Origin: Gemmatimonadota bacterium
GTDB lineage: Bacteria; Gemmatimonadota; Gemmatimonadetes; Gemmatimonadales; GWC2-71-9
NCBI GenBank assembly: GCA_039586815.1
Contig: JBDHJR010000007.1
Location: forward strand, 1,844 to 65,843
Length of the DNA stretch: 64,000 nucleotides
Direction of reading: 5' to 3'
The position numbers and the translations under genes are program-made. The notes under the pieces are model-generated. The model had not been told where the DNA came from. It did no database searches and worked only from the letters and a program-made list of their open reading frames with translations. Shown here piece by piece: positions 36,840 through 63,542 of the stretch (its first letter is position 1; each line of letters begins with the position of its first letter).

Positions 36840-37352
36840 TTACGTGAAGACGATCTGGCCCCCTGCTGCCATCTCGTAGAACTCACCCACCGTGATGATG
36901 TCCGTGATGTGCGGTACGAAGTCGTCCTTACTGAGGTCGAACATGTCCACCGACGCCTTGCAGGCGTACATGCCCGCTCCCGTGTCGGCGATCATCTCGA
37001 CGAACTCGGGGATCGGCGGAATGTCCAGCTCCTCCATCTTCTTCTGCATCATCTTGGTGACCATGGCGGACATTCCGGGGAAGCCGCCCAGCCAGGTCGC
37101 CATGTGGAGGCCGGGGTTCCCCACGGTCGCCACCTTGATCCGCTCTTGCTTCTTCTTCGTGATGGCGTCCATCCCGAAGAAGGTGAAGAACACGTTCGCC
37201 TCGATCCCTTCCATCCGGGCGCCGTTGGCCATGATGAGGCCGGGGTACACACCCTCGAGCGAGCCCTTCGAGATGATGATCGAGACCTTCTTGATCGTCT
37301 CCGGCACGGCCACGTCCGCCGTGGCCTGCTCGGGCATTGTTGCATTCGTCAT
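36840..37352 (-). CDS. DsrE/DsrF-like sulfur-relay family protein
   Basis: …KVSIIISKGSLEGVYPGLIMANGARMEGIEANVFFTFFGMDAI… and …GAGMYACKASVDMFDL… carry the conserved DsrE-type Cys. I chose the ATG at 37352; the upstream extension is Arg/Gly-rich with no support. Confidence 0.75.
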   Translation of the reverse strand: MTNATMPEQATADVAVPETIKKVSIIISKGSLEGVYPGLIMANGARMEGIEANVFFTFFGMDAITKKKQERIKVATVGNPGLHMATWLGGFPGMSAMVTKMMQKKMEELDIPPIPEFVEMIADTGAGMYACKASVDMFDLSKDDFVPHITDIITVGEFYEMAAGGQIVFT

Positions 37353-37381
37353 GGTCGCGTTCCCTCTCTTTGACTCGCCGA

Positions 37382-37696
37382 TCAGATGCAGCCGCGAGGC
37401 TTGGGAATCCCGCCGATCTTGGCGGCCAGCTTCGCGGGTCCCTTGGGGAAGAGCTTGTACAACTCCTTGATCGGCACGCCCGACTCCTTGCCCAGCGCGC
37501 GGATGGAGGGGGCGTTGCCCGTCTCCAGGTACTGGTTGCGCATGAACTCCACGACCTGCCAATGCCGGTCGGTCATCTCGGCGATGCCGGAGTCACGCGC
37601 GATTTCCTGCCCGACGTCCCTGCTCCACTGCTCCGGCTTCTGCATGAAGCCCTCTGCGTCTACTTCGATCGTCAGCCCTGCAATCGTTGCCGTCAT
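37382..37696 (-). CDS. TusE/DsrC/DsvC-family sulfur carrier (single C-terminal Cys, TusE-like)
   Basis: 104 aa. …EVDAEGFMQKPEQWSRDVGQEIA…EMTDRHWQVVEFMRNQYLETGNAPSIRAL…KELYKLFPKGPAKLAAKIGGIPKPRGCI. The C-terminal arm has the penultimate Cys but not the second Cys found 10 residues upstream in DsrC. Confidence 0.8.
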   Translation of the reverse strand: MTATIAGLTIEVDAEGFMQKPEQWSRDVGQEIARDSGIAEMTDRHWQVVEFMRNQYLETGNAPSIRALGKESGVPIKELYKLFPKGPAKLAAKIGGIPKPRGCI

Positions 37697-37715: not shown

Positions 37716-39050
37716 TCAAGCGACTCTCGCGGAGTCGTCCTCAGTTACCATCGAGTTGCGCGCCCCTCCCTGCACCGCGTGACGCTCCGGCGGGGGAAGG
37801 TCAACCCGTTGCTTGCCGCGCAGCGACATGCGCGCGGGCACACCGGGCATGTTCCGCCCGGGAAGCAGCATGTGCCAGTACACCCAGCGGAACCACATCT
37901 TGCCGATGTGGTTCATGCGCGTCTCCTTCAGCAGGGAGAGCGGGCCTACACCGGCGAACGGGAACTTCCCGGGCAGCGGCTGGATGTCGTAGTTGAAGTC
38001 GATGAGCACGGCCTTGTTGAAGCCGGTCTCGATGAAGCAGTTGGCGTGGCCGTCGAACCCCTCCTCGAGCGGCTCCGACGCCAGGTACCGCCGGATGTTC
38101 TCCTCCAGCACCTCGGCCTCGAAGTGCGCCACCGATCCCGCCTTGGAGGTCGGGAGGTTGGTGGCGTCTCCCAGCGCAAAGATGTTCTCCTTCACCTTCG
38201 CCTGGAGCGTGGCCTGGTCGGTGAAGATGAAGTTCATGTCGTCGCCGAGGCCGGGTGAGCGGCTGACGAAGTCAGCGCCCATGTGGAGCGGGATGCTTAC
38301 CAGCAAGTCGAAGCCCTCGACCCGCTCGTCCCACGACTTCAGCTCGCCCTTCTCCCCATCGACCTCACCGGCGTTGAAATCGGTGATGAGCTCGATTCCC
38401 TTCTTCTCCAGCAGATCCCCCAGCGCCTTGGCGGCTAGCGGCCGGGTGAACGCTCCATCCAGCGGCGTGGCCAGCGCGATCTCGACCTTGTCGCGCATGC
38501 CCTTCTCCTGGAAGTACCAGTCGGCCAGGAACACGAACTCCAGTGGCGCGATGGGGCACTTGATGGGCATCTCCACGATGTTCACGACCAGACGCCCGCC
38601 CTCCCACCGCTCGAGCGCCTGGTGCAGCTTGGTTGCGCCATCGAGTGTGTAGAACTCGTGCATCGTGTCGCCCCACCCGGCTCCGGTCAGCCCTTCCGTC
38701 TCCTGGGGGGCAATGCCCGTGCCGCTGGCCACGATGAGTACGTCGTAGTCGAGCGTCTTGCCGCCCTCCAGGTAGACGCGGTCCTCCTCGGGCTCGACTC
38801 TATCGATGGCCGCCTGGACGTACTCCACACCCTTCCCGACCTGGGGGCGGCGCGGCTTGACCGTGTCTTCCGGTGTGTAGATCCCGAAGGGAACGAACAG
38901 CAGACCGGGCTGGTAGACGTGCTGATTGTCCTGATCGACAATCGCAATCTGCAGCTCGCCGGACCTGTAGTCGGACCCGTACAGTTTGCGCAAACGGTTG
39001 GCCATGATGGTGCCGGCCGTACCTGCGCCCAGGATCACGATGCGCTTCAT
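37716..39050 (-). CDS. sqr: Sulfide:quinone oxidoreductase-like flavoprotein (FAD-dependent pyridine nucleotide-disulfide oxidoreductase)
   Basis: MKRIVILGAGTAGTIMANRL (FAD GxGxxG motif), …QHVYQPGLLFVPFG…, …YDVLIVASG…, …IFALGDATNLPTSKAGSVAHFEA…. Its position next to DsrE and TusE/DsrC-like genes supports a sulfide-oxidation role. I chose the ATG at 39050. Confidence 0.75.
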   Translation of the reverse strand: MKRIVILGAGTAGTIMANRLRKLYGSDYRSGELQIAIVDQDNQHVYQPGLLFVPFGIYTPEDTVKPRRPQVGKGVEYVQAAIDRVEPEEDRVYLEGGKTLDYDVLIVASGTGIAPQETEGLTGAGWGDTMHEFYTLDGATKLHQALERWEGGRLVVNIVEMPIKCPIAPLEFVFLADWYFQEKGMRDKVEIALATPLDGAFTRPLAAKALGDLLEKKGIELITDFNAGEVDGEKGELKSWDERVEGFDLLVSIPLHMGADFVSRSPGLGDDMNFIFTDQATLQAKVKENIFALGDATNLPTSKAGSVAHFEAEVLEENIRRYLASEPLEEGFDGHANCFIETGFNKAVLIDFNYDIQPLPGKFPFAGVGPLSLLKETRMNHIGKMWFRWVYWHMLLPGRNMPGVPARMSLRGKQRVDLPPPERHAVQGGARNSMVTEDDSARVA

Positions 39051-39249
39051 GGGTTTCCCCCCCTTGTCCTCGTGTATCCCAGCTCCGGGGCGCGGCGCTC
39101 GGGCCGCGGGCCGCCGGTTTCCTTGCATCACCCAGGCGTAAGAATATAACATATCTATATGGCTATTATCAAATTACAATGAAGGGCCCTTCAGATTACC
39201 CGCTATAGGGATAATGTGTTATCGAGCAACGACTTAGCCATCCTGCCGC
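39051..39249 (-). promoter_or_regulatory. AT-rich leader/promoter region upstream of the SQR sulfur operon
   Basis: It contains a ~70-nt stretch that is strikingly AT-rich for this genome (…AAGAATATAACATATCTATATGGCTATTATCAAATTACAATGAAGG…, ~39141-39186). Exact promoter elements are not assigned. Confidence 0.35.
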
Positions 39250-40742: not shown

Positions 40743-40819
40743 CCGGAAGCCCCTAAACGAAGCGGCCCCCGGGTCGCGGTGACCCAGGGACCGTTACGCC
40801 TCGAATTCCGTACCGTCCG

Positions 40820-41215
40820 TCAGCCGGTGTGGCACAGGGTGCAGTACTTCACATCCCTGCCCTCGTGGCTGGCCGGAGCGTCGGGAATGGCCTCCATGGC
40901 ACCGGGCGTGTGGCACATCATGCACTGCTCCCTGCCCTGCACGCCGTGGGAGACCGCCTTCGGGCTCATCGTCTGCATCGGCGAGTCTGTCGCGTGGCAC
41001 CACATGCACGTCTCGATGCCCCGTCCCTCGTGGGTCGCGGGCGCATCGGGCACCGCCTCCATGGCACCAGCGGTGTGGCACATCAGGCAGTTGTCCCGCC
41101 CCTGCACGTCGTGGCTCACCGGTGGCGGCATCGTCTCCTGCCCGAACGCCGGCACCGCAAGCACGCTGGCCACTAGCAACACACCCATGGCACTCGCGAA
41201 TCTCGCATGGCTCAT
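40820..41215 (-). CDS. Tetraheme c-type cytochrome built from an internal tandem duplication
   Basis: Signal MSHARFASAMGVLLVASVLAVPAFGQ. Two ~50-aa repeats: VSHDVQGRDNCLMCHTAGAMEAVPDAPATHEGRGIETCMWCH and VSHGVQGREQCMMCHTPGAMEAIPDAPASHEGRDVKYCTLCH. That gives 4 CxxCH motifs. Confidence 0.8.
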   Translation of the reverse strand: MSHARFASAMGVLLVASVLAVPAFGQETMPPPVSHDVQGRDNCLMCHTAGAMEAVPDAPATHEGRGIETCMWCHATDSPMQTMSPKAVSHGVQGREQCMMCHTPGAMEAIPDAPASHEGRDVKYCTLCHTG

Positions 41216-41323: not shown

Positions 41324-42277
41324 CTACGGTGATCCCGGAATGGACGTCCCGTGACACACCGTGCACGCCTGCGGGTTGCTCTTCCGCAGACTCTCCGCGT
41401 TGAAGTTGGGCCCGTGTGGACTGACGCCCCGGTGGCAACTGATGCAGGAGCTCTCGGTGTGGCACGCCACACAGCTCTCGAGGCTCTGCCGCGCGGCTTG
41501 TCCATGACCCGCGCCGAAGCCCTGCTGGCCGTCGTGATATCCCGTGCCCTGAATGTTGTCGACAGTGAGCCGGGCCGTCTGGTGACAGTCCTGGCAGAAC
41601 TGCCCTGGATTGTGGCACGAGCTGCACTCGGCGAGCTGGGAATACGCCTCCGCCGGGTGCGCCGACAAGTAGTCGGCCTGGTGGTACCCCGGCGCGGGAT
41701 CCGCGGCCCCGGGCCGATGGCACGACAGGCAATCGGAGCGCACGTGGCAGTTGGCACACGTCTCCGGAGCCGATGTGGCCGGTCCGCGGTGCTCCTCGAC
41801 CCAGGCACCTATGTGGGACGCCGGCTGCGGCGCCTGCGCGTGGCACAGGCTGCAGGGCGACTCCGGCGCGGACTGGTGCGGCGCTTCGATGCCGTGGCAA
41901 CTGAGACAGTTGTCCACTACCGCGCGCTCGACCGCCATCGCGGGGGCGCCCGCCGCCTGGTGGCACGAAGCGCAGTCGATCGGCGGGTGCGTCTCGTGGC
42001 TGAAGTTGTCCGCTGCATAGGCGCCCGCCGTCGGCGGCTGGTACTCTACCACGGGCTGAATCTGCCCGTTGTGGCAGCCGGCACAGAAGGAGGCATCCGG
42101 GTAGACGGCTCCCTCACCGGCCACGCCGGAGTGACACATGGTGCAAGACGTGAACAGGGCAGCGTGTCGCTCGTGCGGGAATTGCCCTTGGGACCCTGGC
42201 TCCGGAGCCGGCGCCGGACCCGTTCCCGCAGCGGCGGCGATGACCACCCCCGCGGCCAGCGTCATCATGGTCTTCAT
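41324..42277 (-). CDS. Dodecaheme c-type cytochrome (c7/c3-type polymer, GSU1996-like architecture)
   Basis: ATG at 42277 (MKTMMTLAAGVVIAAAAG…). 12 CxxCH motifs in ~318 aa: CTMCH, CAGCH, CASCH, CLSCH, CSLCH, CANCH, CLSCH, CSSCH, CQDCH, CVACH, CISCH, CTVCH. c7-type leader motif FPHERHAALFTSCTMCH. Its start overlaps the stop of the barrel gene (ATGA at 42274-42277). Confidence 0.85.
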   Translation of the reverse strand: MKTMMTLAAGVVIAAAAGTGPAPAPEPGSQGQFPHERHAALFTSCTMCHSGVAGEGAVYPDASFCAGCHNGQIQPVVEYQPPTAGAYAADNFSHETHPPIDCASCHQAAGAPAMAVERAVVDNCLSCHGIEAPHQSAPESPCSLCHAQAPQPASHIGAWVEEHRGPATSAPETCANCHVRSDCLSCHRPGAADPAPGYHQADYLSAHPAEAYSQLAECSSCHNPGQFCQDCHQTARLTVDNIQGTGYHDGQQGFGAGHGQAARQSLESCVACHTESSCISCHRGVSPHGPNFNAESLRKSNPQACTVCHGTSIPGSP

Positions 42278-43797
42278 TTCGCGCTCCGCGCTTCGGGAAT
42301 CAGGAGGATCGACGGGTGCAGCGTCGGCGCGTCCGGGGTCGAGCCAAAGTAGAGCGTCAGACCCAGGTTGAAGCGCCACTGATCCCACTTGAACGCCGCA
42401 GCGTCGGGCCGCCGACGGTCTTCCGTGTAGTAGCGGGCCTCACCCATCACCCGCACGTCCGGAACCGGCAGGTAGTCGATCCGCAGCGCGCCGTTCCACC
42501 CCTTCACGTCGTTGAAGCGGTACTCCAGCGGCCGCGAGAGGTATCCGCCGTGCCCCGTGATCGTCAGGTTGTCGACCGGCGCCTCCCAGGTGACGCGGAG
42601 GTCGGCGCCGAGCTGCGTCGCGCCCGTTCCCTTCTCGGCCCAGTAGTTGCCGCCGATGCGCCACCGGTCGAACCCCGAGTAGGTGACGCCGAACAGGCCG
42701 CGCCACCCGTCGTTGGCGACGGTCCCGAAGCGGTCGGTGGCCTCGGTGTCCTCGTACTTGAAGATCTCACCGACGCCGCGCAGCTCCAGCCCCCTGATCG
42801 GGTACCAGTAGACGTTGCCGAACCCGGCGTTGTAGCCGACCGGGCTGAAGGAATTCCAGATCTGCCACAGCGGGAAGTTGGGGCGATAGCGCCGCCAGCC
42901 CACGTTGGCCCTGATGTTGCGCTTGGGGGTCGTGTACCCCACGGCCACATCAGCCGTCCCGACCACCCTCTGCGCGATGTCCCACTGCACGCCGCCGGTG
43001 ACCGAGAAGCCGCGCGAGGGGTACCAGGCCAAATCGAGGGTCGTCTGCTCGGCGAACAGGTAGTTGGCGGAGGAGGCCGCGTCGATCTCGCGGTGGTACA
43101 GCCAGCGCCCCTCGAACCCCTTGAGACGCCAACCGAGTCCGCCTCCAATCACGTACTGCCGCTGGGACGGCTGGTATTGGTCAAGCGGATTCACGTACTG
43201 GCTGGAAACCAGCACGGGAGTCCCGCGGGCCAACCCCCATCCGCCGTAGCCGAAGACCTCGAGCCTGCGGTCGAGTAGGAAGAGGTTGAGCTTGGCGCCG
43301 TCCACACCGATGTATCCCAGACGGTTGGTCTCGTGGAACCGGCCCAGCACTGCGGTGAGAAGACTGATCTTGTACTCCCCGTAGGCCTCGAGCAGCTGCA
43401 CGTCCGGCTTCACGGCGGGCCACACGTCGGGGTTCGCCAGATCGGTGCCGGCCCGGGCCTTCACGCGGAAGCTCAGGCCCCTGACGCCGAGCCCAAACAG
43501 CGCCGCATCGAGCGTGCTCACCAGCGGCGCACCCTGCCGCGCCGCTCCCTCTTTGTGGTAGTAGCAGGTCGACGTCGTGCCCTCGCCGCACGTCACGGCG
43601 AAGCCGTTCCACTCGTAGCCCCCGGTGGCGCCGGTCGTCACATCGGCGAATGGAACGCTGTCCAGATCCCAGCCCTTGTAGGCGACGGACTGGAACCAGG
43701 TGTCGAGTCGGACCTGGTATCCTTGGGCGAGAACCGGTGCCGTCCAGAAGACCAGTGCTGCGGCGGCAACCATCACGCGGACGAAGGACCGCTTCAT
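42274..43797 (-). CDS. Putative outer-membrane beta-barrel protein (porin partner of the dodecaheme)
   Basis: ATG at 43797. Signal MKRSFVRVMVAAAALVFWTAPVLAQ. It is Cys-free and rich in Gly/Tyr/Trp/Arg, with alternating-hydrophobic strands (…GLSFRVKARAG…, …LDLAWYPSRGFSVTGGVQWD…, …WRFNLGLTLYF…). I rejected the 95-codon 5' extension in the track. Confidence 0.6.
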   Translation of the reverse strand: MKRSFVRVMVAAAALVFWTAPVLAQGYQVRLDTWFQSVAYKGWDLDSVPFADVTTGATGGYEWNGFAVTCGEGTTSTCYYHKEGAARQGAPLVSTLDAALFGLGVRGLSFRVKARAGTDLANPDVWPAVKPDVQLLEAYGEYKISLLTAVLGRFHETNRLGYIGVDGAKLNLFLLDRRLEVFGYGGWGLARGTPVLVSSQYVNPLDQYQPSQRQYVIGGGLGWRLKGFEGRWLYHREIDAASSANYLFAEQTTLDLAWYPSRGFSVTGGVQWDIAQRVVGTADVAVGYTTPKRNIRANVGWRRYRPNFPLWQIWNSFSPVGYNAGFGNVYWYPIRGLELRGVGEIFKYEDTEATDRFGTVANDGWRGLFGVTYSGFDRWRIGGNYWAEKGTGATQLGADLRVTWEAPVDNLTITGHGGYLSRPLEYRFNDVKGWNGALRIDYLPVPDVRVMGEARYYTEDRRRPDAAAFKWDQWRFNLGLTLYFGSTPDAPTLHPSILLIPEARSAK

Positions 43798-43955: not shown

Positions 43956-46814
43956 TTACTGGTACCCGAAGAGCATGGAGTACACGATCAGCGCAATCAA
44001 CGTGAGCCCGACTCCGAGCGCCGCAAAAGCGAAGATCCGGAACCCCAGCTCCACCCGCTTGGGGTAGGGCTCGACCAGCCACTCCTCCAGCTTACCCTCC
44101 GCCACCAACTCCTCGTACTCTCCGGGCTTGTCAGCCTTCAGCTCCTCGATGGGCACTCGACCCGTGAAGATCACCGGGTCCATCGGGAATTTGTCGGGCC
44201 GGAAGTGCGTGTTGAAGAAGTGCACGGTGAAGATGAACGCCACCGCCAGCAGCTTCACCGACCACCCGGGCATGATGATCGTGAACAGCTCCGGGAACCA
44301 GAGCAGCAGGCCCGTCGAGCCGATGATGAACATCCCCCAGAAGACCGCGAAGTAATCGAACTTCTCCCAGTAGGTGTACCGCCCGTACTTGGGCCGCGGA
44401 CCACGGCCGAAGAACCACCTGATCGACTGCCCGAACTCCCGGAGGTCACGGGAACCGAAGATGATGGAATCCCGCGAGGTGATGTACTGCCACCACGTCA
44501 GTCCAGCGCTCTTCTTCTGCTTGCGCACGTCCCACAGGTGCACCAGGAACGTCGCGATGAGCGCCACTGCGCCGACACGGTGCAGCACCCCCGTTGTCTG
44601 GAACCCACCGGCCAGCCGCGCGGAAACCTGCGCCCACCCCATGTACGAGAACTTCAGCACCATCCCCGTGAGGGCCAGTATGAAGAAGCTGAGCAGCATC
44701 ACACCGTGCAGCGATCGCTGGAACACGGTGAACCGGCGGTACAGCGGCTCCCCGGGCTTCGCGTGGTGCCGCTTTCGCGCCTCCGGCGTGCGCACCAGCC
44801 GGAACAGCCACGCCAGGGTGTGCAGCGTGGCGAAGGTCAGAGTACCGACCAGCAGTGCCGTCATGCCCCAGAAGGTCCAGAACAGGAACGGGTATTTCTC
44901 CGGATCGTGGTGCGTGGCGTGTGTGAGATACCCCGTGAAGCGGATGTTGGCGCCAGCGTGGCACCGTGAGCAGGTCTCCACCACGTTGCGGCGGCTCAGC
45001 AGCGAGGTCGGCTCGCTGGTGGGCAGGATGTTGTGGGTCCCGTGGCAGTCGTAGCACTTGGCGGCCGCCTCGTCCCCCAAGCGCGAGACCTTGCCGTGGA
45101 ACGTGTCGAAGAAGGTCTTTGCCTCGTCCTCGTGACACCGGCCGCACTGGTTCATCATGAGCAGCCGGAAGTCGCCCCGGTCTACCCGCCTGATGGTGTG
45201 CGACGTGTGGCAGTCCTCGCAGGTGGGGAGCGAGCGGTGGTCGTCGGGCTCTCCCACGTCCGGCGAGTGGATGCTGGTGTTGAAGATCTCCTCGATGCCG
45301 TGATGGCACGTACCGCAAGTCCCGGCGAGGTTGTCGGGGTGCACACTCGAGTTGGGGTCGTCCGCTGGCAGCTCGCGGTGCGCCGTGTGGCAATTGCTGC
45401 ATGTGGCGGTCACAACCAGTCCGCTCTCGAACAGCCCCTTGCCGTGGATGCTCATCTCGTAGCTCTCCACGGGGGGCGGGATGTCCATTGTGCGCGCCAG
45501 GGCTTCGAGCGGCTCCGGTCCAGCGGCTTCGATGTCCTCCATTAGGTGCGCCGACTCGATGCGCACCGCAGCGGTCTGGCCCGTGCGGTGGCACTGCGCG
45601 CACAGCGCCGGCACGTTGCGGGCGAAAGTCGGCGAGGCCGGGATCCGCTTGCCCAGGGTAGCGTGCTGGTCGTGGCAGTCGAGACACACCGGTGCGTCAG
45701 GATCACCTTCGGCGGCCAGCCGGCCATGCATGCCGGCCGTGTACTCCCCGACCTCGTCCTCGTGGCACGCGGCGCAGTCCACCCGCTGGGTGATCGCCGC
45801 GCAGGGTCGCGATAGCCTGGGGCTCACCTCAGCGTGGCACTGGGCACACGGTGTCTCCGCGTGGCTCGAGGTGAAGTACGCTTCCTCGTTCACGTAGAGC
45901 GACACCGTGTCGCCCCGCGCCACTCCCACGAGCTCCTCGTCACCGTGGCATCGCAGGCAGTTGGCGTTGGCCGAGCCAGCCTCGTAGAACACCCTGCGAA
46001 TACGGTGCGGCGCATGGCAGTCCACACAGGCGGGGATCTGGTGAGGCTCCTCCTCCCATAGCCGCCCCTCGATGACCTGCACGTGCACCTGCTCGATCTG
46101 CGCGTGGCACTGCGTGCAGGTTTCCGCGACGTTGTCGTGGTGGATGCTCGAGCGGGCGTCGGTGTGCGGTAGGATGAAGTGCGACGTATGGCACGAGGTG
46201 CACACCGCCGTCACGGTGAGCCCCTGCTCGTACAGCCCCGAGCCGTGGATCGACTGGGAGTAGTTCTCGAGGATGCTGTCCTGGGGAATCTGCAACCGCC
46301 GCGAGACTGGCGTGCCCTCCTGGTGGCACTCCCCGCACAGGAACGGGATGTTCATCACCCGCGTGGGCGAGCGGGGGTCGCGGTGGGAGCGTATGTCGTG
46401 CGTGCCGTGACAGTCGACGCAGCTGGGGGCAAGCGGGTCGGCACGGGCTGCCGCCTGCCCGTGCAGTGAAGCGTCGTGCTCCTCCGCCTGCTGGCGGTGG
46501 CACAGGCTGCAGTCGACCGCCGGCACATCGTCGGGATGCGGGAAGCTCAGCCCGGTGTGGCACATGACGCAGAGCATCCCGGTCTGCCCGTGCGCGGATC
46601 CGCCGAACTCTTGCTCGTCCACGACGAGCTGCGCAGCGTCGGGGCGCCCCTCGAACAGCGCGGGGTTGGTGTGGCACATCAGGCAGGGTTGATTGTCCTG
46701 TGCCACTGCGCCCGCAGCCACACAACAGAAGAAGGCGGCGAGCAGCACACCCCTCCCAACCACCCACACCCGATGGTTCCGGCTGCTCGACCGCCACCCA
46801 TGATGGCTGCGCAT
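43956..46814 (-). CDS. CbcL-like fusion: 19-heme periplasmic cytochrome c domain + C-terminal diheme b-type (HydC/FdnI-like) membrane domain
   Basis: ATG at 46814 (MRSHHGWRSSSRNHRVWVVGRGVLLAAFFCCVAAGAVAQ). I counted 19 CxxCH motifs from CLMCH to CSRCH. A 4-5 TM domain follows with conserved His residues (…FQRSLHGVMLLSFFILALTG…, …GVLHRVGAVALIATFLVHLWD…, …FIFTVHFFNTHFRPDKFPMD…). Confidence 0.85.
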   Translation of the reverse strand: MRSHHGWRSSSRNHRVWVVGRGVLLAAFFCCVAAGAVAQDNQPCLMCHTNPALFEGRPDAAQLVVDEQEFGGSAHGQTGMLCVMCHTGLSFPHPDDVPAVDCSLCHRQQAEEHDASLHGQAAARADPLAPSCVDCHGTHDIRSHRDPRSPTRVMNIPFLCGECHQEGTPVSRRLQIPQDSILENYSQSIHGSGLYEQGLTVTAVCTSCHTSHFILPHTDARSSIHHDNVAETCTQCHAQIEQVHVQVIEGRLWEEEPHQIPACVDCHAPHRIRRVFYEAGSANANCLRCHGDEELVGVARGDTVSLYVNEEAYFTSSHAETPCAQCHAEVSPRLSRPCAAITQRVDCAACHEDEVGEYTAGMHGRLAAEGDPDAPVCLDCHDQHATLGKRIPASPTFARNVPALCAQCHRTGQTAAVRIESAHLMEDIEAAGPEPLEALARTMDIPPPVESYEMSIHGKGLFESGLVVTATCSNCHTAHRELPADDPNSSVHPDNLAGTCGTCHHGIEEIFNTSIHSPDVGEPDDHRSLPTCEDCHTSHTIRRVDRGDFRLLMMNQCGRCHEDEAKTFFDTFHGKVSRLGDEAAAKCYDCHGTHNILPTSEPTSLLSRRNVVETCSRCHAGANIRFTGYLTHATHHDPEKYPFLFWTFWGMTALLVGTLTFATLHTLAWLFRLVRTPEARKRHHAKPGEPLYRRFTVFQRSLHGVMLLSFFILALTGMVLKFSYMGWAQVSARLAGGFQTTGVLHRVGAVALIATFLVHLWDVRKQKKSAGLTWWQYITSRDSIIFGSRDLREFGQSIRWFFGRGPRPKYGRYTYWEKFDYFAVFWGMFIIGSTGLLLWFPELFTIIMPGWSVKLLAVAFIFTVHFFNTHFRPDKFPMDPVIFTGRVPIEELKADKPGEYEELVAEGKLEEWLVEPYPKRVELGFRIFAFAALGVGLTLIALIVYSMLFGYQ

Positions 46815-46958
46815 CCTCGTCACCACTCGTCCCCGCCTAGATTCGATCGAATCGTGCCCCCGCCAAGATACACTTGAATGCCGCACCGAGAGCCGGCCCG
46901 GTAGATCCTAAAGAATTCCTCACCCGAATTTGTAAGTCGGTGCCAGGTCACCCCTTAG

Positions 46959-46998
46959 GCGAGGGGCGGGAGGTACCTAGGCACCTCCCGCCCCTCGC
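46959..46998 (-). terminator. Perfect 16-bp GC-rich stem-loop between the two CbcL-like genes
   Basis: GCGAGGGGCGGGAGGT-ACCTAGGC-ACCTCCCGCCCCTCGC lies 19 nt downstream (minus strand) of the stop at 47017. There is no U-tract, so it may be a terminator, attenuator or mRNA-stability element. Confidence 0.55.
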
Positions 46999-47016
46999 TA
47001 CTCCACGTGCGCTACG

Positions 47017-49008
47017 TCAGTTCTTCGTCCGCACCGTTCCGCCTGATTCTCGCGTCGGCGTGTTCTGCGCTGCGGCGGCGTTCTCATCAACGCCTTGAGC
47101 CGAGGCCGCGGGAGCCAACTCCTCGTCATACCACTGCGCGTGGTGGTGCATCACGAAATGCTCCGGCAAGCGGCCCGTTAGCCATGCCCAGTTCATGGGG
47201 TATGCGTCGGGGTGCACGATCACGAAGAAGAGGTGCCACACCAGGATTGCAAGCGTGGCGAGCCAGGCCTCGTAGTAGTGCACCGTCTGCGACGCCGGCA
47301 CGATCCACCACGGCAGGATCTTCACCGCCGCGACCGGGAACCAGAGCACGAATCCGGTCACCACCATGACCACCGTGCCCCACACCAGCGCCCAATACTC
47401 CGCCTTCTGCGTGTAGTCGTAGCGCCCGAAGCGCGGGTGCTTCCTCGTACGCCACGTGTAGTACCGCAGGTACTGCGTCGCGTCGGTGGCGTCGCGCCAC
47501 TGCGGCAGCATCGCCTTGAACTCTTCCTTGCCCCGCCGCGTCATCATGACGTACAGCACGTGGCTCACCGCCACCGCGATGAGCACGACCGCGGCGATGC
47601 GGTGCAGGTTGGAGCGCACCGGCTCGTTCATGCCGATGGCGGTGAGCCATTGGACCCACCACGCGTCGGGGAACCGCAGCGCAAACCCCGTGACCACCAG
47701 CAGGATGAAGGCCACGGCGTTGACCATGTGTTGCGCCACCTGAGTACGATCGAGCCGCGTGATGTAGCCCACCCGCCGTTCCTCCCGGCGGCGCTCGATC
47801 AGGTAGTAGTTGAACACCACGGCGTTGTGCAGCGCCATGATCCCGATCGTCGCCGCGATGATCACGTAGTAGATGAGGCGGATCACGTTGTTGATCGGGT
47901 TGGCCGCCATGGAGGCCGTGATGTGGGTGTAGCTGGTTGCGAACTCCGTGTCGGCATCCGGATGGCACTGTCCGCAGGTGGCCGTCAGGTTGGCCGGGTG
48001 GATCGTGGAGGCCGAGTCGGACGCCGGCAGCACTGCATGGGTGGTGTGGCAGCTCACGCAGGTGGCGGCGCGCTCATAGTCGCGGGCCGTCGCCCAACCG
48101 TGGTAGCTGTCCTCGTAGGTGCCAATGACGCCACCCTGCATGCCATACTTGGCGATGATCTCCGGGTCGCCGTGGCACTCGCCGCACGTCTCGGTCGCGA
48201 GCCGGGCGTCGTAGGTCCGGGCGTGGGGGTCGTCGTGGGACAGGATCAAGTGCTCCCCGTGACAGTCCGTGCACGTGGGGCTGTCGCCCAACCCCGCCCG
48301 CAGCGCCCGCCCGTGAATCGAGGCATCGTAGAGCCGCTCAATTTCGTCGTGGCATTGGCCGCACGTGGAGGCGACGTTCAGGTGGTTGATCTTGGACTCG
48401 GGGTCCAGCGTCCCCCGCAGATCGTGCACGCCGTGGCAGTCGGTGCAGCGGGCGGCATCTCCGTCACCGTTGCGGCCGTGCACTGACTGGGCGTACGACC
48501 CGTAGATCTGGGGCAGGCGGACGGCCTCTTCGGTACGCAGGCCCGCCTCGCCGTGACAGGCGGCGCACATTATTGGGACGTTCTCGTGGTGAGTACGCGC
48601 CTCCGGATCCGAGCTGCGCCGGATGTCGTGCGCCCCATGACAGGAGGCGCAGGTCGGAGCTGCGGCAACCCCGCGCGCCAACGCGTAGCCGTGCAGGCTC
48701 TCGCTGAACTCCTGTTCCACGCCGCCGTGACACCCTCCGCAGCTCGGTGGCGGGGCGTCGGCAGGATGGGGGAACCCCGTGTAGCCCTGGTGACAGAACA
48801 CGCACTGCAAGCCAAGCGCCCCGTGCACGGAGGATGTGTACTCCTCCTCCGTGACCACCATCTGCGTCGGGTCCTCCAGCCCGGAGAACATGGCCACGTC
48901 GCCGTGGCACATGAGGCAGAGTTGGTTGTCCTGGGCCGCGGCGGGCTGTGCCGCTATGAATACGCTGGCGATCGCCAGCGAGAAGATCGTCAAGGGACTC
49001 GCGCGCAT
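47017..49008 (-). CDS. CbcL-like fusion: 11-heme cytochrome c domain + C-terminal diheme b-type membrane domain
   Basis: ATG at 49008 (MRASPLTIFSLAIASVFIAAQPAAAQ). 11 CxxCH motifs: CLMCH, CVFCH, CGGCH, CASCH, CAACH, CTDCH, CGQCH, CTDCH, CGECH, CVSCH, CGQCH. The TM domain has His residues at …VAQHMVNAVAFILLVVTG…, …LHRIAAVVLIAVAVSHVLY…, …TVHYYEAWLATLAILVWHLFFVIVHPD…. Its N-terminal 60 aa are clearly paralogous to those of 43956-46814. Confidence 0.85.
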   Translation of the reverse strand: MRASPLTIFSLAIASVFIAAQPAAAQDNQLCLMCHGDVAMFSGLEDPTQMVVTEEEYTSSVHGALGLQCVFCHQGYTGFPHPADAPPPSCGGCHGGVEQEFSESLHGYALARGVAAAPTCASCHGAHDIRRSSDPEARTHHENVPIMCAACHGEAGLRTEEAVRLPQIYGSYAQSVHGRNGDGDAARCTDCHGVHDLRGTLDPESKINHLNVASTCGQCHDEIERLYDASIHGRALRAGLGDSPTCTDCHGEHLILSHDDPHARTYDARLATETCGECHGDPEIIAKYGMQGGVIGTYEDSYHGWATARDYERAATCVSCHTTHAVLPASDSASTIHPANLTATCGQCHPDADTEFATSYTHITASMAANPINNVIRLIYYVIIAATIGIMALHNAVVFNYYLIERRREERRVGYITRLDRTQVAQHMVNAVAFILLVVTGFALRFPDAWWVQWLTAIGMNEPVRSNLHRIAAVVLIAVAVSHVLYVMMTRRGKEEFKAMLPQWRDATDATQYLRYYTWRTRKHPRFGRYDYTQKAEYWALVWGTVVMVVTGFVLWFPVAAVKILPWWIVPASQTVHYYEAWLATLAILVWHLFFVIVHPDAYPMNWAWLTGRLPEHFVMHHHAQWYDEELAPAASAQGVDENAAAAQNTPTRESGGTVRTKN

Positions 49009-49195
49009 CGTCTTCCTCCACTCCAACCCGGCCATCGTGTGGCAACCACCCATTCCCATCGCCGCTCGTCCATCTCACCGTTGGGATATATGGCCCGACG
49101 GCGCATGAAAGATAATGGGAACCACAGCTCCCGAAGGGACGAATTACCTGTTAGGAGGTCTTACCCGACCAGAGGAGTCGCGATTTCGTCGCGCC

Positions 49196-51184
49196 TTACC
49201 CACCACCCAATGGCGCGACGTCGTGACACAGGTGGCACTCCGCGGGAGCGTTGTGCTCCACCCGGTCGGCGTGGCAGATGGTGCACACCTGGCGGGACCA
49301 CTCGGTGATCCCCTGCGCCTTGTCGCCGTGGCATGTGCTGCACTGCGAGTGCCCGAAAGCGAGCGCGTGGCGGTCCTGCACCCCGCCCCGGTGGCACGAG
49401 AGGCAGTCCGCCTCGGGCTGATGGTGCATGTCGTGGCACGCCACGCAGTCTACGCCCCCACCGCTCATGTTGGGCGCGGCGTGGCACATGCTGCACGAGA
49501 GCCCGGCATCCCGGTGCGGGGCGTGCGGGAAGTCGCCGGTCTCGGTTGCCACCGGCGCCTCGGGTGCGCCACCGGGACCCGCGTGGCACTCGGCGCAGTT
49601 GCGGGATTCGATCTGCGCGTGGTGGCACCCGACGCAGTCGGAGGGCGAGCTGAGCAGCGTCTTACCGTGATCGTCGAGCGGCGAGTGGCAGCTCGCGCAG
49701 TCGAGGCCGGCATCCAGCACGTGTCGTTCATGATCGAACGCGGTGCCGCGGAACGAAAGCTCGCTGCGCTCCACCCCCAGGTGACACTGCAGGCAGACGT
49801 TCTCGCTCACCCGCGGCCCGAGGTCCACCTGTGGCACCGCGTACGGGAGGCTGCCCGCGCGCACGGCTTCTTCCACCAACTCCACGCTCGCCCGCAGCAG
49901 CTCGTCGGCGTAGGCGATGTTGTGCGCCCCCTTACCGAGCTCGACGAACTCCACGTTCTCCCGGGCGAGCTCCAGCAGCGAATCCACCTGTGTTCGGGTG
50001 CGCACCTGGGCCGACCCGGCAGCCCGCACTGCCCCCTCTACCACACGCGACGCGAGCCGCACCTTGCGGTCCATCTCCTGCTGCCATGAGGGCAGGATGT
50101 TGACGTAGCGGATACCGTGACACGACAGGCACGACGCCTCGCCGGCGAACCGTACCGACTCGTGCGCGCTCACGCCGCGGAGCAGCTCGTGGCACCCGGT
50201 GCAGGAGACCCGGGCGAGGAACATGGAGCTCGGAGTGTCGTCGGATCCGTGACCGCCGATCCCCGCATACAGTTGTTGCTGCGCCTCGTGCACCCGTCGG
50301 TGGCAGGCCTCGCAGTCGAGTTGGGCTGTCTCGTTTAGTGAGAAGAGCTGATGCACGATCTCTGTGTGGCACTGGGTGCATTCCACGTTGTGCTCGGCGA
50401 TGTGCACCCGATGAACGAGCGTCGTGTTCTCGAACTCCTCGACGCGCTCCGGCCGATTGTGGCACGTCCAGCAGCGTTGCTCGTCGGCGTCCCCCGTGCC
50501 GCGCCGCACCTCATCATGACACGATACGCAAGAGACGAGGTCCTCCACATACTGCTCGTGGTCCACGACGAACCCCGCCGGCGAAACGACGCGTGGTGGT
50601 GCCGTGTGGCACGCTACGCAGCCCGCCACCGGCTCGTCTGCCTCGGCGGCCTTGAAGTGACACAGATTGCACGTCGTCTGCGTGACCGCGAGGTGCTGTC
50701 CCTGTACTATCTGGGAGTGGCACGATGTACAGCGTAGCTGCTTGCCGCGGCGCAGCTCGCCCAGGTGCTGGGTGTGGTCGAACCGCACCCCTCGGTAGTT
50801 CACCACGCCTTCGACCTTGCGCAGCGAGTGGCACCCCGAACGCAAGCAGGCGGCGTCCTCGATCTCGGCCCACGGCTTGGTGCCATAGGCCCCCGTCACG
50901 TACCGCGCTACCTGGTTGGCCGCCTGGAACTTGCCCATCGCTTCGGCCTTCACCCCTGGCGCGTAGTGGCACTTGATGCAGGGCACGTCGTTGTGGGAGG
51001 AGGTCGCCCAGGAATCGTAGTAGGGCTGCATGATGTGGCAGTTGGTGCAGAAGCCCGGCTGGGCGCTGTACTCGATGAACCCGACCGCCCCCACCGCCGC
51101 CAGGATCACCGCGAGCACGCCGATCTGAATGCCGATCTTCAGCGGCTTCGAGAGACGCTGGAGCTGCTCCGAGGCGCGTCGCAT
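49196..51184 (-). CDS. NapC/NirT(CymA/ImcH)-headed membrane-anchored multiheme cytochrome, 21 CxxCH + one CX4CH
   Basis: N-terminal TM helix (IGIQIGVLAVILAAVGAVGFI) is followed directly by CTNCHIMQPYYDSWATSSHNDVPCIKCH, the NapC/NirT quinol-dehydrogenase head. 19 further CxxCH motifs run along 660 aa. An additional CLRSGCH is present. Confidence 0.85.
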   Translation of the reverse strand: MRRASEQLQRLSKPLKIGIQIGVLAVILAAVGAVGFIEYSAQPGFCTNCHIMQPYYDSWATSSHNDVPCIKCHYAPGVKAEAMGKFQAANQVARYVTGAYGTKPWAEIEDAACLRSGCHSLRKVEGVVNYRGVRFDHTQHLGELRRGKQLRCTSCHSQIVQGQHLAVTQTTCNLCHFKAAEADEPVAGCVACHTAPPRVVSPAGFVVDHEQYVEDLVSCVSCHDEVRRGTGDADEQRCWTCHNRPERVEEFENTTLVHRVHIAEHNVECTQCHTEIVHQLFSLNETAQLDCEACHRRVHEAQQQLYAGIGGHGSDDTPSSMFLARVSCTGCHELLRGVSAHESVRFAGEASCLSCHGIRYVNILPSWQQEMDRKVRLASRVVEGAVRAAGSAQVRTRTQVDSLLELARENVEFVELGKGAHNIAYADELLRASVELVEEAVRAGSLPYAVPQVDLGPRVSENVCLQCHLGVERSELSFRGTAFDHERHVLDAGLDCASCHSPLDDHGKTLLSSPSDCVGCHHAQIESRNCAECHAGPGGAPEAPVATETGDFPHAPHRDAGLSCSMCHAAPNMSGGGVDCVACHDMHHQPEADCLSCHRGGVQDRHALAFGHSQCSTCHGDKAQGITEWSRQVCTICHADRVEHNAPAECHLCHDVAPLGGG

Positions 51185-51185
51185 C

Positions 51186-52421
51186 CTACGGCTTGGCTTC
51201 CCGCAACTTGAACCAGGCGAGCGCGATCACCGATAGCGCCAGGAACCAGACCGGAACGAGCAGCAGCTTGTGCTCCCACTGTTCCTCCGCGTGCGCCTCC
51301 GCCGTGGCCCGGATGATCCCCGTGTTCGAACGCACACGCAGCCCAAGATCTCTCAGCTGTTCGAGGTCCAGACTGTGCTGCACCAGCGCGACCTGGTTGT
51401 ATTCTGAGACGGCACTCTGGTAGCGGAAGCGCTCATCAGCTACCTCGTGACCCATCGCCACCATCTCATCGATGGCATCGGCCGCCTGGTGGAGCTCCTC
51501 CGTGGCTCGCAGCACTTGTTCCTGGATCTCCGCGCCCATGAGTCCCGGACCACTCTCGGCATCGTGACACCTTTGACACAGCGCGGCGATCGCGTCGAAC
51601 GGCGTGCGCTCGGTACCATGGTTGCTGTGGCATCCTAAGCAGCCCTGGAGCTCCCCGCTGCGTGCCGGCCCACCGTGCGGCCCCCGGTAGAACGCTCGCC
51701 CCAGAAGCTCGTGGCACTGACTGCACACGTCGGCGATCTGGTTGACCGCGGGCGGCAACGCAGCGTGCGAGCCGTGACACCCGATGCAGGTCGGCGCCGC
51801 AAAATTGCGTTGCTCGAACACGGCGACTCCATGGGCTCCGGTGCGGTAGCGCTCGAACTGATCGGTGGGCTCCCTGTACCGGGCCATGAGCTGCGCGTCC
51901 TCATGGCAGTTCCCGCACGTGGCCGGGATGTTCGTGGGGTGGACCTCGCTGCGCGCATCCTCCGGCGGCAGGATCAGGTGCGCGTTGTGGCAGTCGGTGC
52001 ACGTGGGCGCGGCGGCGTCGCCCTGTTCGAGAAGCAGTTGGCCGTGGCGACTGGTGCGGAACTCGGCGAGCTGGTCGGCCGCCAGACCGTACTGCCGCAT
52101 CTGGTTGGGGTCGGCGTGGCAGGCACTGCACAGTTGGATGGTCCCCAGCTTGCTGGGCGTTCCAACGAATCGCCCCTGATGCGCTGCCGGGGCCTCGTAC
52201 ACCGCCGTGTTGCCTCCATGACAGTCGTGGCACTTGATACCCTGCTCCGAGTGCACTCCGAGCGTGAACGATCGCCGTTTGTCGGCGTGGCAGACGATGC
52301 AGCCGTACACGGAGTCGTCCTGTGCAGCGAGTCTCTGAGCCGGGGGCACGGGCGCCGCGGTGGCGCCATCCGGCACCGCCCCCAAGAGGAGCACCAACCC
52401 CAGGACCGAGAGGGTCCTCAT
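51186..52421 (-). CDS. Nonaheme c-type cytochrome with C-terminal membrane anchor (paralog of 57711-58994)
   Basis: The ATG at 52421 shares one nt with the cytochrome b stop. Signal MRTLSVLGLVLLLGAVPDGATA. Nine CxxCH motifs (CIVCH, CHDCH, CSACH, CTDCH, CGNCH, CIGCH, CSQCH, CLGCH, CQRCH). A helical region and a C-terminal TM helix LLLVPVWFLALSVIALAWF follow. The 196-codon 5' extension in the track overlaps cytochrome b and is rejected. Confidence 0.8.
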   Translation of the reverse strand: MRTLSVLGLVLLLGAVPDGATAAPVPPAQRLAAQDDSVYGCIVCHADKRRSFTLGVHSEQGIKCHDCHGGNTAVYEAPAAHQGRFVGTPSKLGTIQLCSACHADPNQMRQYGLAADQLAEFRTSRHGQLLLEQGDAAAPTCTDCHNAHLILPPEDARSEVHPTNIPATCGNCHEDAQLMARYREPTDQFERYRTGAHGVAVFEQRNFAAPTCIGCHGSHAALPPAVNQIADVCSQCHELLGRAFYRGPHGGPARSGELQGCLGCHSNHGTERTPFDAIAALCQRCHDAESGPGLMGAEIQEQVLRATEELHQAADAIDEMVAMGHEVADERFRYQSAVSEYNQVALVQHSLDLEQLRDLGLRVRSNTGIIRATAEAHAEEQWEHKLLLVPVWFLALSVIALAWFKLREAKP

Positions 52422-53779
52422 CACGGCCTCCCCACTCCATCCCCGACAGCGCTGTCTGCGGGAGATCCCGGCTCTACCGGCGTCGGCCCGACTCGTTCGA
52501 GCGGTGTGCTGGATCTCGCCGGCACCACCCGCTCCTGCCGCTCCACCTGCCCAATTCCCTCGGAGGGAGGCAACGAACCGATGCCCCGCCCCAGGGCCCA
52601 CAACATGACGAAGCCGCCGAAGAAGACCGCCCCGAGAGCGGCCACAACCGGGCGCTTGCGGATGTGTCGCTCCGGGCGTCGATCGAACAGGGGGAGGAGG
52701 AACAGGCTGAAACCCACCAGCGTAAAGGCCGTGAACCCCCACATCCCGAGATAGCGAAGCAACGCCAGCGACACGTCTACGGGCACCCAGGTGGAGACCA
52801 ATCGATCTGGTACCGTGAGGGGATCCGCCGGATTGCCGAACGGCCGCGGGAACAGCACGGCCAGGGTCACTACCAGCGCCAGGACCAGCACCGTCACGCT
52901 GAGTGACCTCAACAGGTGGTTGGGGAAGAAGGGCGTGCCCTGCTGCTCGGCCTCCTCCATCGCCTGCTTCAGAACTTCCTGTGTCGTTCCCACAGCACTC
53001 AGGCGCCACGGCGCCTTCTCTTCGTTTACTTCTACCGGCGGCGCGATGCCGCGGCGGCGCACGAGCGTGAAGTGGTACGAGAGCAGCGCCAGAGAGATCC
53101 AGGGAAGCACGATCACGTGTAGCGAGAAGAAACGGCTGAGCGTCGCGCCCGACACGATTACGTCACCCATGAGGGCATCAGCAATCACCCCACCGAAGAA
53201 CGGGAAGCCGGAGATCGCAACCAACACCTCGGTCACCGTCCAGTAGGCCCACTGATCCCAGGGCAGCAGGTAGCCGCTGGCGCCGAACGCCAGGACCACT
53301 CCCAGCAGGAGCAGCCCGACGGTCCAGTTGGTCTCCCGGGGGGGCTTATACGCCGCCTCGAACAGGACCCGCGCCATGTGCGCCAGAACGGCCAGAACGA
53401 TGAGGCTTGCGGACCAGACGTGGACGTGGTAGATCAGCCAGCCGAACGACACGTTCGACACGATGTGTTGCACGCTCGGGTTGGCCTCTTGCACCGACGG
53501 GCGATAATACAGCGCCAGCAACACGCCCGTGACCACCAGCATCATGAAGAGCACGTACGTGATGCCACCGAACATCTGGCGCCAGCCCACGTGGGGGTCG
53601 AGCCGGTACTTCAGAGCCTTGCGGAGTGCATCATCGATCCGCAGCCTGCGGTCGATCGGTCCGTAGATCAGCCCGAGGAACCGGGCGCCTCCCAGCAGGC
53701 CCGCATCTGCACTCGCCTTGAGGTCGTCCCACGTCTGGGAGAACCATAGGCTCGTGGCGTGCCACATCCGACGAATCAT
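52421..53779 (-). CDS. Cytochrome b (fused b6 + subunit-IV type), divergent: Qo PEWY motif absent
   Basis: …FGGITYVLFMMLVVTGVLLALYYRPS…FGWLIYHVHVWSASLIVLAVLAHMARV… has the heme His pair at H-x13-H. …TLSRFFSLHVIVLPWISLALLSYHF… has H-x14-H. In the position where the paralog 56113-57210 reads KPEWYF, this protein reads VSTWVP. Confidence 0.85.
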   Translation of the reverse strand: MIRRMWHATSLWFSQTWDDLKASADAGLLGGARFLGLIYGPIDRRLRIDDALRKALKYRLDPHVGWRQMFGGITYVLFMMLVVTGVLLALYYRPSVQEANPSVQHIVSNVSFGWLIYHVHVWSASLIVLAVLAHMARVLFEAAYKPPRETNWTVGLLLLGVVLAFGASGYLLPWDQWAYWTVTEVLVAISGFPFFGGVIADALMGDVIVSGATLSRFFSLHVIVLPWISLALLSYHFTLVRRRGIAPPVEVNEEKAPWRLSAVGTTQEVLKQAMEEAEQQGTPFFPNHLLRSLSVTVLVLALVVTLAVLFPRPFGNPADPLTVPDRLVSTWVPVDVSLALLRYLGMWGFTAFTLVGFSLFLLPLFDRRPERHIRKRPVVAALGAVFFGGFVMLWALGRGIGSLPPSEGIGQVERQERVVPARSSTPLERVGPTPVEPGSPADSAVGDGVGRP

Positions 53780-53780: not shown

Positions 53781-54236
53781 CTATGACTCCGTCACGTAAA
53801 CTGTGCCGTCCCGTACGAACACCGAGTAGCGGGCGAGCGGTGCGGTGGAGAGGCCGGTCACGACGTAGCCGTGCAGGTCGTAGATCACGTAGGAGCAGGG
53901 CGAGAAGACGCGCGACGACTCGTCATCCCACTGGAGGATGCAACCGTCGCTGGGGGAAACGCCCTGCAAGGCAAAGTATGTGTCTTCCTCGACCCTAACG
54001 ACGAGGATCGCGCGCTCGCCCCACCGCACCAGCCGGCTTGCGCCGACCGGGAAGTCGGCCTGGCGCACCACGCGAAACGCAGGCTGCACCTGGGGGATCT
54101 CGAGGCGCTCGCCCGGTAGGACGTAGAGCCCGACACTCAGCCCGATGGTCGCGAGGATCAGGACAACGACCGCGCCGAGCAGGAGCTCGTTGAAACCGAG
54201 CCCCGAAGTCTTCTCCTCCGCACCGTCAGCGCTCAG
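53781..54236 (-). CDS. Rieske-fold protein lacking all four 2Fe-2S ligands (pseudo-Rieske subunit), probable N-terminal TM anchor
   Basis: Alignment with the canonical Rieske protein at 57212-57694:
[32 protein letters not shown]
GVSPSDGCILQWDDESSRVFSPCSYVIYDLHG
Box spacing is identical, but Cys/His/Cys/His are all Ser, while the two disulfide Cys are kept. The track ORF starts at GTG 54089. However, the frame stays open to 54329 and encodes a TM helix (LLLGAVVVLILATIGLSVGLYVL) with no ATG/GTG/TTG. I propose a CTG start at 54236, preceded by GGGAGGGGA. The 5' end is uncertain. Confidence 0.55.
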   Translation of the reverse strand: MSADGAEEKTSGLGFNELLLGAVVVLILATIGLSVGLYVLPGERLEIPQVQPAFRVVRQADFPVGASRLVRWGERAILVVRVEEDTYFALQGVSPSDGCILQWDDESSRVFSPCSYVIYDLHGYVVTGLSTAPLARYSVFVRDGTVYVTES

Positions 54237-57210: not shown

Positions 57211-57211
57211 A

Positions 57212-57694: not shown

Positions 57695-57710
57695 TCAGAG
57701 GTCCTCGGGT

Positions 57711-61480: not shown

Positions 61481-61496
61481 CTGTCTCTCACGACGG

Positions 61497-62843: not shown

Positions 62844-62844
62844 G

Positions 62845-63528: not shown

Positions 63529-63542
63529 CGTTCCCGCACCCC

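Follow-up and report, generated by a model that had tools for sequence, protein, structure and literature searches.

A 64,000-nucleotide stretch of a Gemmatimonadota genome (contig JBDHJR010000007.1, order Gemmatimonadales; hereafter the window) carries two tandem genes, A and B, whose products each join a periplasmic multiheme cytochrome c domain to a membrane-embedded cytochrome b. With a probability of about 65%, we read A and B as paralogous inner-membrane quinol:cytochrome c oxidoreductases or quinone reductases of the CbcL/MtrH/MtoC family, and B as forming a conduit together with the three genes that follow it, H, I and J. The assignment to this family draws on the heme and transmembrane (TM) positions of its catalogued members and on the architecture that A and B appear to share with them. 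The window copy of B carries a 30-bp in-frame deletion within its membrane domain, which bears on whether this particular copy is functional.

Both genes lie on the reverse strand. The longest open reading frames span 47017-49059 for A and 43956-46886 for B, and the likely starts are MRASPL at 49008 and MRSHHG at 46814, respectively. As the initial annotation of the stretch had read them, both products begin with a signal sequence, and behind this hydrophobic segment their openings are near-identical (AAQDNQLCLMCH in A and VAQDNQPCLMCH in B). Its motif counts also proved exact: CxxCH occurs precisely 11 times in A, starting at residues 31, 69, 90, 120, 148, 188, 216, 246, 275, 317 and 345, and precisely 19 times in B, while the CxxxCH and CxxCK variants are absent from both. 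GC content at the third codon position (GC3) is 0.88 in A and B against 66% GC for the genome, and on this codon-position signal we therefore consider both to be real coding sequence.

The initial annotation had described each product as a CbcL-like fusion of a multiheme c domain to a cytochrome b of the FdnI/HydC type, and had proposed comparing the C-terminal parts with PF01292 (Ni_hydr_CYTB). Both proteins score above the Pfam cut-off of 30.1 bits, A with 70.4 bits and B with 35.5 bits. Escherichia coli FdnI (1kqf_C) aligns with A by sequence at an E-value of 2.8e-7, and the same chain is the sole significant Foldseek match of the AlphaFold2 model of A (template modelling score, or TM-score, 0.76 on the target; E 1.3e-4); the b domain alone was recognised. 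This model has a predicted local distance difference test (pLDDT) of 76.9 and a predicted TM-score (pTM) of 0.60. The model of B is of low confidence (pLDDT 63, pTM 0.41), with most of the heme domain below 50-70. NCBIfam comparisons of the membrane domains gave formate dehydrogenase gamma matches below threshold. By Kyte-Doolittle windows, a crude predictor of helix number, A has a signal sequence and five TM helices, namely a linker helix and a bundle of four with no C-terminal sixth helix, and B has a signal sequence and six. The 4-5-helix membrane domain that had been described for both genes thus holds for A and not for B.

The membrane-domain histidines divide the two genes in the same manner. 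A contains H394 in TM1, H427, H469, H483, H577 and H592, and in the alignment H427, H469, H577 and H592 correspond to FdnI H18, H57, H155 and H169. The PF01292 arrangement of four helices and four histidines, with one on helix 1, one on helix 2 and two on helix 4, is therefore present in A and not in the window copy of B, which contains H665 in TM1, H703, H745, H759 and H865. Of these, H703, H745 and H865 are FdnI-type; the H155 equivalent is missing, leaving three of the four. The FdnI-like conserved histidines claimed for both proteins were accordingly found complete in A alone. Across the family the four positions are constant or nearly so: they are conserved in 100% of 36 A-type and 82 B-type proteins from fetched loci of many phyla, and in 97-100% of 136 diverse cluster representatives. 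In addition, 80-100% of the family carries two further TM histidines, H394 (A) or H665 (B) in TM1 and H483 (A) or H759 (B) in TM3. FdnI has neither of them and carries Met71 at the TM3 position; the TM3 histidine lies 14 residues below the FdnI-H57 equivalent. To judge from this conservation, the additional pair could ligate a third heme or otherwise mark an extra cofactor, or it could form a distinct quinone site.

Alignment of the two proteins to each other accounts for their different heme counts. Residues 41-275 of B match its own residues 283-544 with 38% identity (E 6e-52). The whole of A, comprising its 11 hemes and the b domain, aligns to B 279-888 with 30% identity (E 6e-72), and a further alignment pairs the first eight hemes of A with the first eight of B at 35% identity. 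Given that A covers B 279-888 and that B 41-275 matches B 283-544, the sequences lead us to read B as the architecture of A to which a tandem internal duplication of an 8-heme module has been added (Table 1).

We next considered how far these proteins extend what has been catalogued. Zhong & Shi 2018 (PMC6295460) described the CbcL/MtrH/MtoC family from 15 phyla, with 3-23 CxxCH motifs and lengths of 416-1034 residues; most members have six TM helices and a few have four or five, and three conserved histidines are mentioned. Both A and B, each with a multi-CxxCH domain behind a hydrophobic N-terminus, fall inside this range in heme number, and their five and six TM helices lie within the published range. 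Table S2 of that paper lists the Gemmatimonadetes bacterium protein MAF27600.1 with 951 residues and 19 motifs, along with further 19-motif members from Caldithrix abyssi (Cabys_319), Ignavibacteria, Solibacteraceae, Elusimicrobia and others, and 11-motif members from Opitutus terrae (Oter_2603), Lacunisphaera limnophila (WP_069963319.1), Planctomycetes and Lentisphaerae. Since 19- and 11-heme members are both listed there, the heme counts of A and B are not novel, and the two proteins are new members of a known, catalogued and widespread family. Our literature search on Gemmatimonadota multiheme cytochromes or extracellular electron transfer, and on 'CbcL-like' proteins, returned nothing specific to A or B beyond this paper.

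Database searches agree with the catalogue. The databases contain more than 3,300 relatives of B; the best 120, mostly from Gemmatimonadota metagenome-assembled genomes, are 787-1048 residues long and 60-95% identical to B, and 113 of them contain exactly 19 CxxCH motifs. When one genome per GTDB species was scanned, a B-type protein was found in at least 591 genomes, among them members of Gemmatimonadota, Acidobacteriota, Woeseiaceae, Zixibacteria, Bacteroidota/Ignavibacteria, Planctomycetota, Myxococcota and other groups. Relatives of A are 603-705 residues long and 53-84% identical to it, and an exhaustive HMMER search with A gathered 973 clusters (50% identity) at E <= 1e-30. Among the 130 apparently complete proteins of the top 150 cluster representatives, heme counts range from 1 to 22 with a mode of 11 (60 proteins). 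Informative names are lacking for P0344, a 9-heme cluster representative whose spacing is CbcL-like, and for seven further representatives. The fusion of a c domain to a cytochrome b on one polypeptide is kept in hundreds of homologues. Against this background, the 'expanded' and 'unusually long' heme complements of the initial annotation are not supported, with 11 being the modal count and 19 a common type; its reading of the CbcL-like architecture is. A frameshift or fusion artefact was ruled out for both genes by end-to-end alignment with many homologues of the same length at 60-95% identity.

The deletion in B was located by comparison with these homologues. Where they read PGW-x-VN VATI-x-HSDEA LLAVAFIFTVHFF, the window copy reads PGWSVK LLAVAFIFTVHFF, so that the ten residues VATI-x-HSDEA of TM5 are missing together with the histidine equivalent to FdnI His155. 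DNA comparison with loci L001-L005 showed a clean 30-bp in-frame deletion. It occurs in none of 202 homologues (the 120 above and the 82 from fetched loci, which comprise 80 GTDB genome loci together with L001-L005), including relatives 95% and 88% identical to B, and the VATI-x-HSDEA motif is present in all 82 B-type genes of the fetched loci. The deletion is the sole multi-residue indel specific to the window copy, the only other being a one-residue insertion at residue 436, and K854 at the junction is the only change at otherwise invariant columns of B. With no other window-specific decay in B, the sequence comparisons therefore point to either a very recent event or an assembly error.

The window copy thus lacks the ligand for heme b on the periplasmic side, and it may be impaired, provided that its sequence is correct. 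We regard it as an even bet that the B sequence of this genome is either a damaged allele or the product of a sequencing or assembly error, so that this copy would have no working diheme b and function would be left to A, or to a population variant that retains the ten residues. The uniqueness of the deletion among the 120 and 82 homologues, the 99-100% family-wide conservation of the lost histidine and the near absence of other window-specific indels, which fits a very recent event or artefact and not long-term decay, all speak for this reading. On the other hand, the deletion keeps the reading frame, the remainder of the 952-residue protein is intact and conserved, and the helix left at the deletion site, about 20 residues long, could still cross the membrane. 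Searches for the junction in Joint Genome Institute (JGI) metagenome contigs, with both exact and degenerate patterns, gave 0 matches, which is uninformative either way.

Apart from this copy-specific deletion, the preferred reading of A and B as quinone-linked oxidoreductases extends to the genes around them. Ten genes follow one another in a single orientation in the order G-F-E-D-C-A-B-H-I-J (Table 1). Our scan for promoters and terminators found nothing convincing between A and B. Neither the A-B nor the B-H gap contains a terminator-like site, and J is followed at 40763-40793 by a strong hairpin of that kind, with 13 pairs. The stop of H and the start of I overlap (ATGA).

Table 1 Features of the cytochrome cluster in the 64,000-nucleotide window (positions are those of the window)
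Feature	Position	Strand	Description	Basis
Gene A	47017..49008	-	663-residue protein, 11-heme c domain and FdnI-type cytochrome b	Open reading frame, CxxCH count, PF01292
A, periplasmic c-heme domain	47899..48936	-	Residues 25-370	CxxCH motifs, hydropathy
A, membrane domain	47134..47898	-	Residues 371-625: linker TM1, then four-helix FdnI-like bundle	Hydropathy, FdnI alignment, Foldseek
Gene B	43956..46814	-	952-residue protein, 19-heme c domain and FdnI-type cytochrome b	Open reading frame, CxxCH count, PF01292
B, first 8-heme module	45990..46694	-	Residues 41-275, hemes 1-8	Self-alignment, alignment to A
B, second 8-heme module (internal duplicate)	45183..45968	-	Residues 283-544, hemes 9-16	Self-alignment, alignment to A
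B, membrane-proximal hemes 17-19	44895..45182	-	Residues 545-640	CxxCH motifs, hydropathy
B, membrane domain	43959..44894	-	Six predicted TM helices	Hydropathy, homologue alignments
B, junction codon K854	44253..44255	-	Site of window-specific 30-bp in-frame deletion	Protein alignments, DNA comparison with L001-L005
Gene C	49196..51184	-	662-residue cytochrome, NrfH/NapC-like N-terminal anchor, 21 CxxCH and 1 CxxxxCH; upstream of A	
Gene D	51186-52421	-	9-heme cytochrome, part of upstream bc-type module	
Gene E	52421-53779	-	Fused cytochrome b6/subunit IV, part of upstream bc-type module	
Gene F	53781-54089	-	Rieske-fold protein, part of upstream bc-type module	PF13806, 29 bits
Gene G			9-heme cytochrome, upstream of F, same orientation	
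Gene H	42274..43797	-	507-residue secreted protein, unannotated family; directly downstream of B	Signal peptide
Gene I	41324..42277	-	12-heme cytochrome c	MtrC/MtrF domain II/IV, 40 bits
Gene J	40820..41215	-	131-residue tetraheme cytochrome c, last of unit	CxxCH count

Gene H is the least familiar member of this unit. It matched no Pfam or NCBIfam family, with only a weak LptD match below the cut-off, and no PDB entry by profile search. All of its 37 database relatives are annotated 'hypothetical', and one of them carries PF13505. Beta-type amphipathic windows are enriched in the protein (z 2.9), which contains 12% glycine and 15% aromatic residues and has no TM helix in its mature part, and from this composition we take H to be a putative outer-membrane beta-barrel.

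Gene order in relatives ties B to H, I and J. The order C-A-B-H-I-J is kept at 69-91% identity in four loci (L003, L004, L088 and L089), and B-H-I-J is kept in more distant Gemmatimonadota. H follows B in L001, L003, L004, L008, L010, L012-L014, L016, L017, L019, L088 and L089; I after H is conserved, and J is conserved near B-type genes. C lies upstream in L003, L004, L009, L010, L019, L088 and L089, and the order D-E-F is the same in L003, L088 and L089. At 38 of 85 B loci, the B-type gene has an A-type paralogue no more than 10 kb away, and in 16 of these 38, as in the window, the paralogue is directly upstream on the same strand. At the A-type position in L001 (Gemmatimonadota genome CP070792.1, 8844-9880), the 19-heme gene is preceded by a 344-residue protein with PF01292/DUF4405 only, which appears to be a stand-alone b domain without a c-heme domain.

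The scheme that we infer from these data, its cofactors, quinone site, direction of electron flow, partners and the barrel nature of H included, is as follows. A and B would be exported by the Sec pathway, which would place the c-heme domain with its 11 or 19 hemes in the periplasm, tethered by the linker helix to the FdnI-type bundle, where the four histidines of family members would hold two b hemes. By analogy with FdnI and CbcL, the b hemes would exchange electrons with the menaquinone pool, and the electrons would move across the membrane into the c-heme chain. B heads a probable operon in this Gemmatimonadales lineage, B-H-I-J, and because this operon combines B with the barrel-like H, the 12-heme I and the 4-heme J, we read it as a candidate conduit that would link the quinone pool with the outer membrane or cell surface and in which, as the synteny suggests, B would feed H-I-J or be fed by them. 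A, the shorter paralogue, would probably serve other periplasmic partners. The proposal of the initial annotation that the paralogues are tuned to different partners is plausible on these grounds, and gene order lends it some support: B keeps company with H-I-J, and A-type genes that stand alone in other Gemmatimonadota genomes adjoin a peroxidase gene or cytochrome c biogenesis genes.

Several observations weigh against this reading. No similarity of H to MtrB/PioB or to any solved structure was detected, and its barrel assignment comes from composition and amphipathicity only. In tests for a conduit of the MtrAB/MtoAB type, H, I and J matched neither family at curated thresholds, and the DmsE-family scores of B, C and D are far under the 192-bit cut-off, although the genes may still work in the manner of such a conduit. 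In the complete Gemmatimonadota genomes L002 and L005, the B-type gene stands apart from the H/I/J-like genes, which lie on the opposite strand, and the hydrogenase maturation genes hypA, B, C, D, E and F lie in between (L002, 13055-18972; L005, 12902-16192). Given its sulfide:quinone reductase (SQR), DsrC and DsrE neighbours, the window cluster may have a role in sulfur or other periplasmic redox chemistry. The link of A and B to the Geobacter sulfurreducens CbcL runs indirectly through the published catalogue, and the window copy of B is short of one of the four b-heme ligands.

Some of these points favour a different account, in which A and B would take no part in extracellular electron transfer but would act as general periplasmic electron distributors, connecting the quinone pool with soluble enzymes such as peroxidases or nitrogen or sulfur redox enzymes; the gene order would reflect a respiratory island and not a physical conduit. 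In the complete Gemmatimonadota genomes L006 (CP070812.1) and L007 (CP070722.1), the 11-heme A-type gene lies away from the 19-heme gene and is directly followed by a CCP_MauG diheme peroxidase (11972-13030 and 11906-12967, respectively), which hints that some A-type proteins may donate quinol-linked electrons to a peroxidase. In L090, the A-type gene adjoins ResB/CcsA genes of cytochrome c biogenesis. Furthermore, the window itself holds two bc-type modules and NrfD/FeS, SQR, DsrC and DsrE genes, and many B-type loci of other phyla lack H/I/J-like genes at BLAST level. We nonetheless consider general distribution the less probable account, in view of the tight and conserved B-H-I-J order in Gemmatimonadota with its overlapping H and I, and of the family precedents in which mtoC or mtrH stands beside mtoAB or mtrAB (PMC6295460).

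A further alternative concerns direction: B or A might reduce quinone with electrons taken up from a donor in the periplasm or outside the cell, as MtoC does in iron oxidisers. FdnI itself works in the quinone-reducing direction (PDB 1kqf), and in the spacing of its last five hemes B comes close to the MtoC type. The family includes members from Fe(III) reducers and Fe(II) oxidisers alike, with no sequence feature to separate the two directions (PMC6295460). That same neutrality tells against a specific case for inward flow, since nothing in the sequence discriminates direction, and we hold it to be rather unlikely.

Returning to the reading of B-H-I-J as a conduit, a stronger version would have B, H and I form a new, envelope-spanning conduit type in Gemmatimonadota, one without MtrA/MtrB or Geobacter Pcc homologues. 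In such a conduit, the heme chain of B, fused to its quinol site, would bridge most of the periplasm and make a soluble shuttle unneeded. As a separate matter, the family b domain might hold more than the two FdnI-type hemes. Both propositions seem to us improbable.

Other genes of the window broaden the respiratory setting. Gene C, whose CxxxxCH motif is CLRSGCH at residue 113, represents a third type of quinol-interacting module, in addition to the bc-type module and the FdnI-type modules of A and B. Gene F lacks the C-x-H and C-x-x-H cluster motifs and has GCILQ and PCSYVIYDLH instead; because these motifs are missing, F probably lacks a [2Fe-2S] cluster, even though the next gene, E, is a cytochrome b6/subunit IV fusion. 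Its homologue in L003 has 128 residues, so the true start of F may precede the listed GTG. Further upstream, likewise on the reverse strand, is a second respiratory block (56113-63855), with a cytochrome b (56113-57210), a canonical Rieske protein (57212-57694), a multiheme cytochrome (57711-58994), two class-I cytochromes c (58994-61480), an NrfD-type membrane protein (61497-62843) and a 4Fe-4S protein (62845-63855), the last two of which resemble part of alternative complex III. Downstream of the cytochrome cluster, also on the reverse strand, are genes for an SQR-like flavoprotein (37716-39152), DsrC (37382-37696) and DsrE2 (36840-37562), neighbours that recur in L003 and L004. A link of the cytochrome cluster to sulfur oxidation is possible.

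For the window, the result is mostly one of correct annotation, and its 19-heme copy calls for caution, since it may be defective or mis-assembled. Its wider interest lies in the family. To our knowledge, CbcL/MtrH/MtoC proteins are one of the few known links between the quinone pool and extracellular electron transfer, and the 9-heme Geobacter protein is the only member with genetic support that we know of. The 19-heme types, present in hundreds of species from many phyla, built by duplication of an 8-heme module and often paired with an 11-heme paralogue, with an unannotated outer-membrane-like module as neighbour in Gemmatimonadota, are reasonable targets for structural and biochemical work, and A- and B-type genes could serve as markers of possible electroactivity in phyla that are not known for it.

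How A and B relate to characterized systems can be followed in their heme spacing and membrane layout. CbcL (GSU0274) likewise consists of a periplasmic multi-CxxCH domain, a linker TM helix and a HydC/FdnI-like cytochrome b. The last four hemes are spaced by 29, 42 and 28 residues in A, with TM1 about 30 residues further on, and by 28, 43 and 28 residues in CbcL, with TM1 28 residues on. The proteins differ in size: CbcL has 9 hemes, 619 residues and six predicted TM helices, whereas A has 11 hemes and five TM helices, and B has 19 hemes with a duplicated module. Genetic evidence for CbcL supports a role with acceptors of particular redox potential (PMC6295460).

The closest catalogued counterparts are nearer still. 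Heme spacings in MAF27600.1 are 37, 23, 30, 28, 45, 28, 30, 23, 36, 24, 30, 28, 45, 28, 32, 25, 30 and 28 residues, and in B 38, 20, 30, 28, 45, 28, 30, 23, 37, 24, 30, 28, 67, 28, 32, 25, 30 and 28, such that essentially one loop differs, and length and TM layout agree. B departs from MAF27600.1 in this lineage-specific loop between hemes 13 and 14, which in B has about 22 extra residues, and in its unique 10-residue deletion in TM5. For A, the heme spacing of the Lacunisphaera 11-heme protein is almost identical, and the heme and TM positions of the Opitutus and Lacunisphaera entries are nearly superimposable; A, however, lacks the sixth TM helix listed for the catalogued 11-heme entries. 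Tandem pairs of 11- and 19-heme genes are not mentioned in the PMC6295460 catalogue.

MtoC and MtrH of Dechloromonas aromatica, Gallionella ES-2 and Rhodoferax ferrireducens belong to the same family as A and B, and their genes have those of an outer-membrane porin-cytochrome module as neighbours. In B, the last five hemes are spaced by 32, 25, 30 and 28 residues, close to the 31, 25, 30 and 28 of the MtoC type (Table S2). MtoC and MtrH, however, have 9 hemes and recognisable MtoA/MtoB or MtrA/MtrB neighbours, whereas H, I and J beside B match neither pair. Finally, FdnI (1kqf chain C) and HyaC/HydC resemble A in their four-helix bundle with histidines at the H18, H57, H155 and H169 positions. 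FdnI is a separate subunit without a c-heme domain; A and B, by contrast, add to this core a linker helix and two extra conserved TM histidines.

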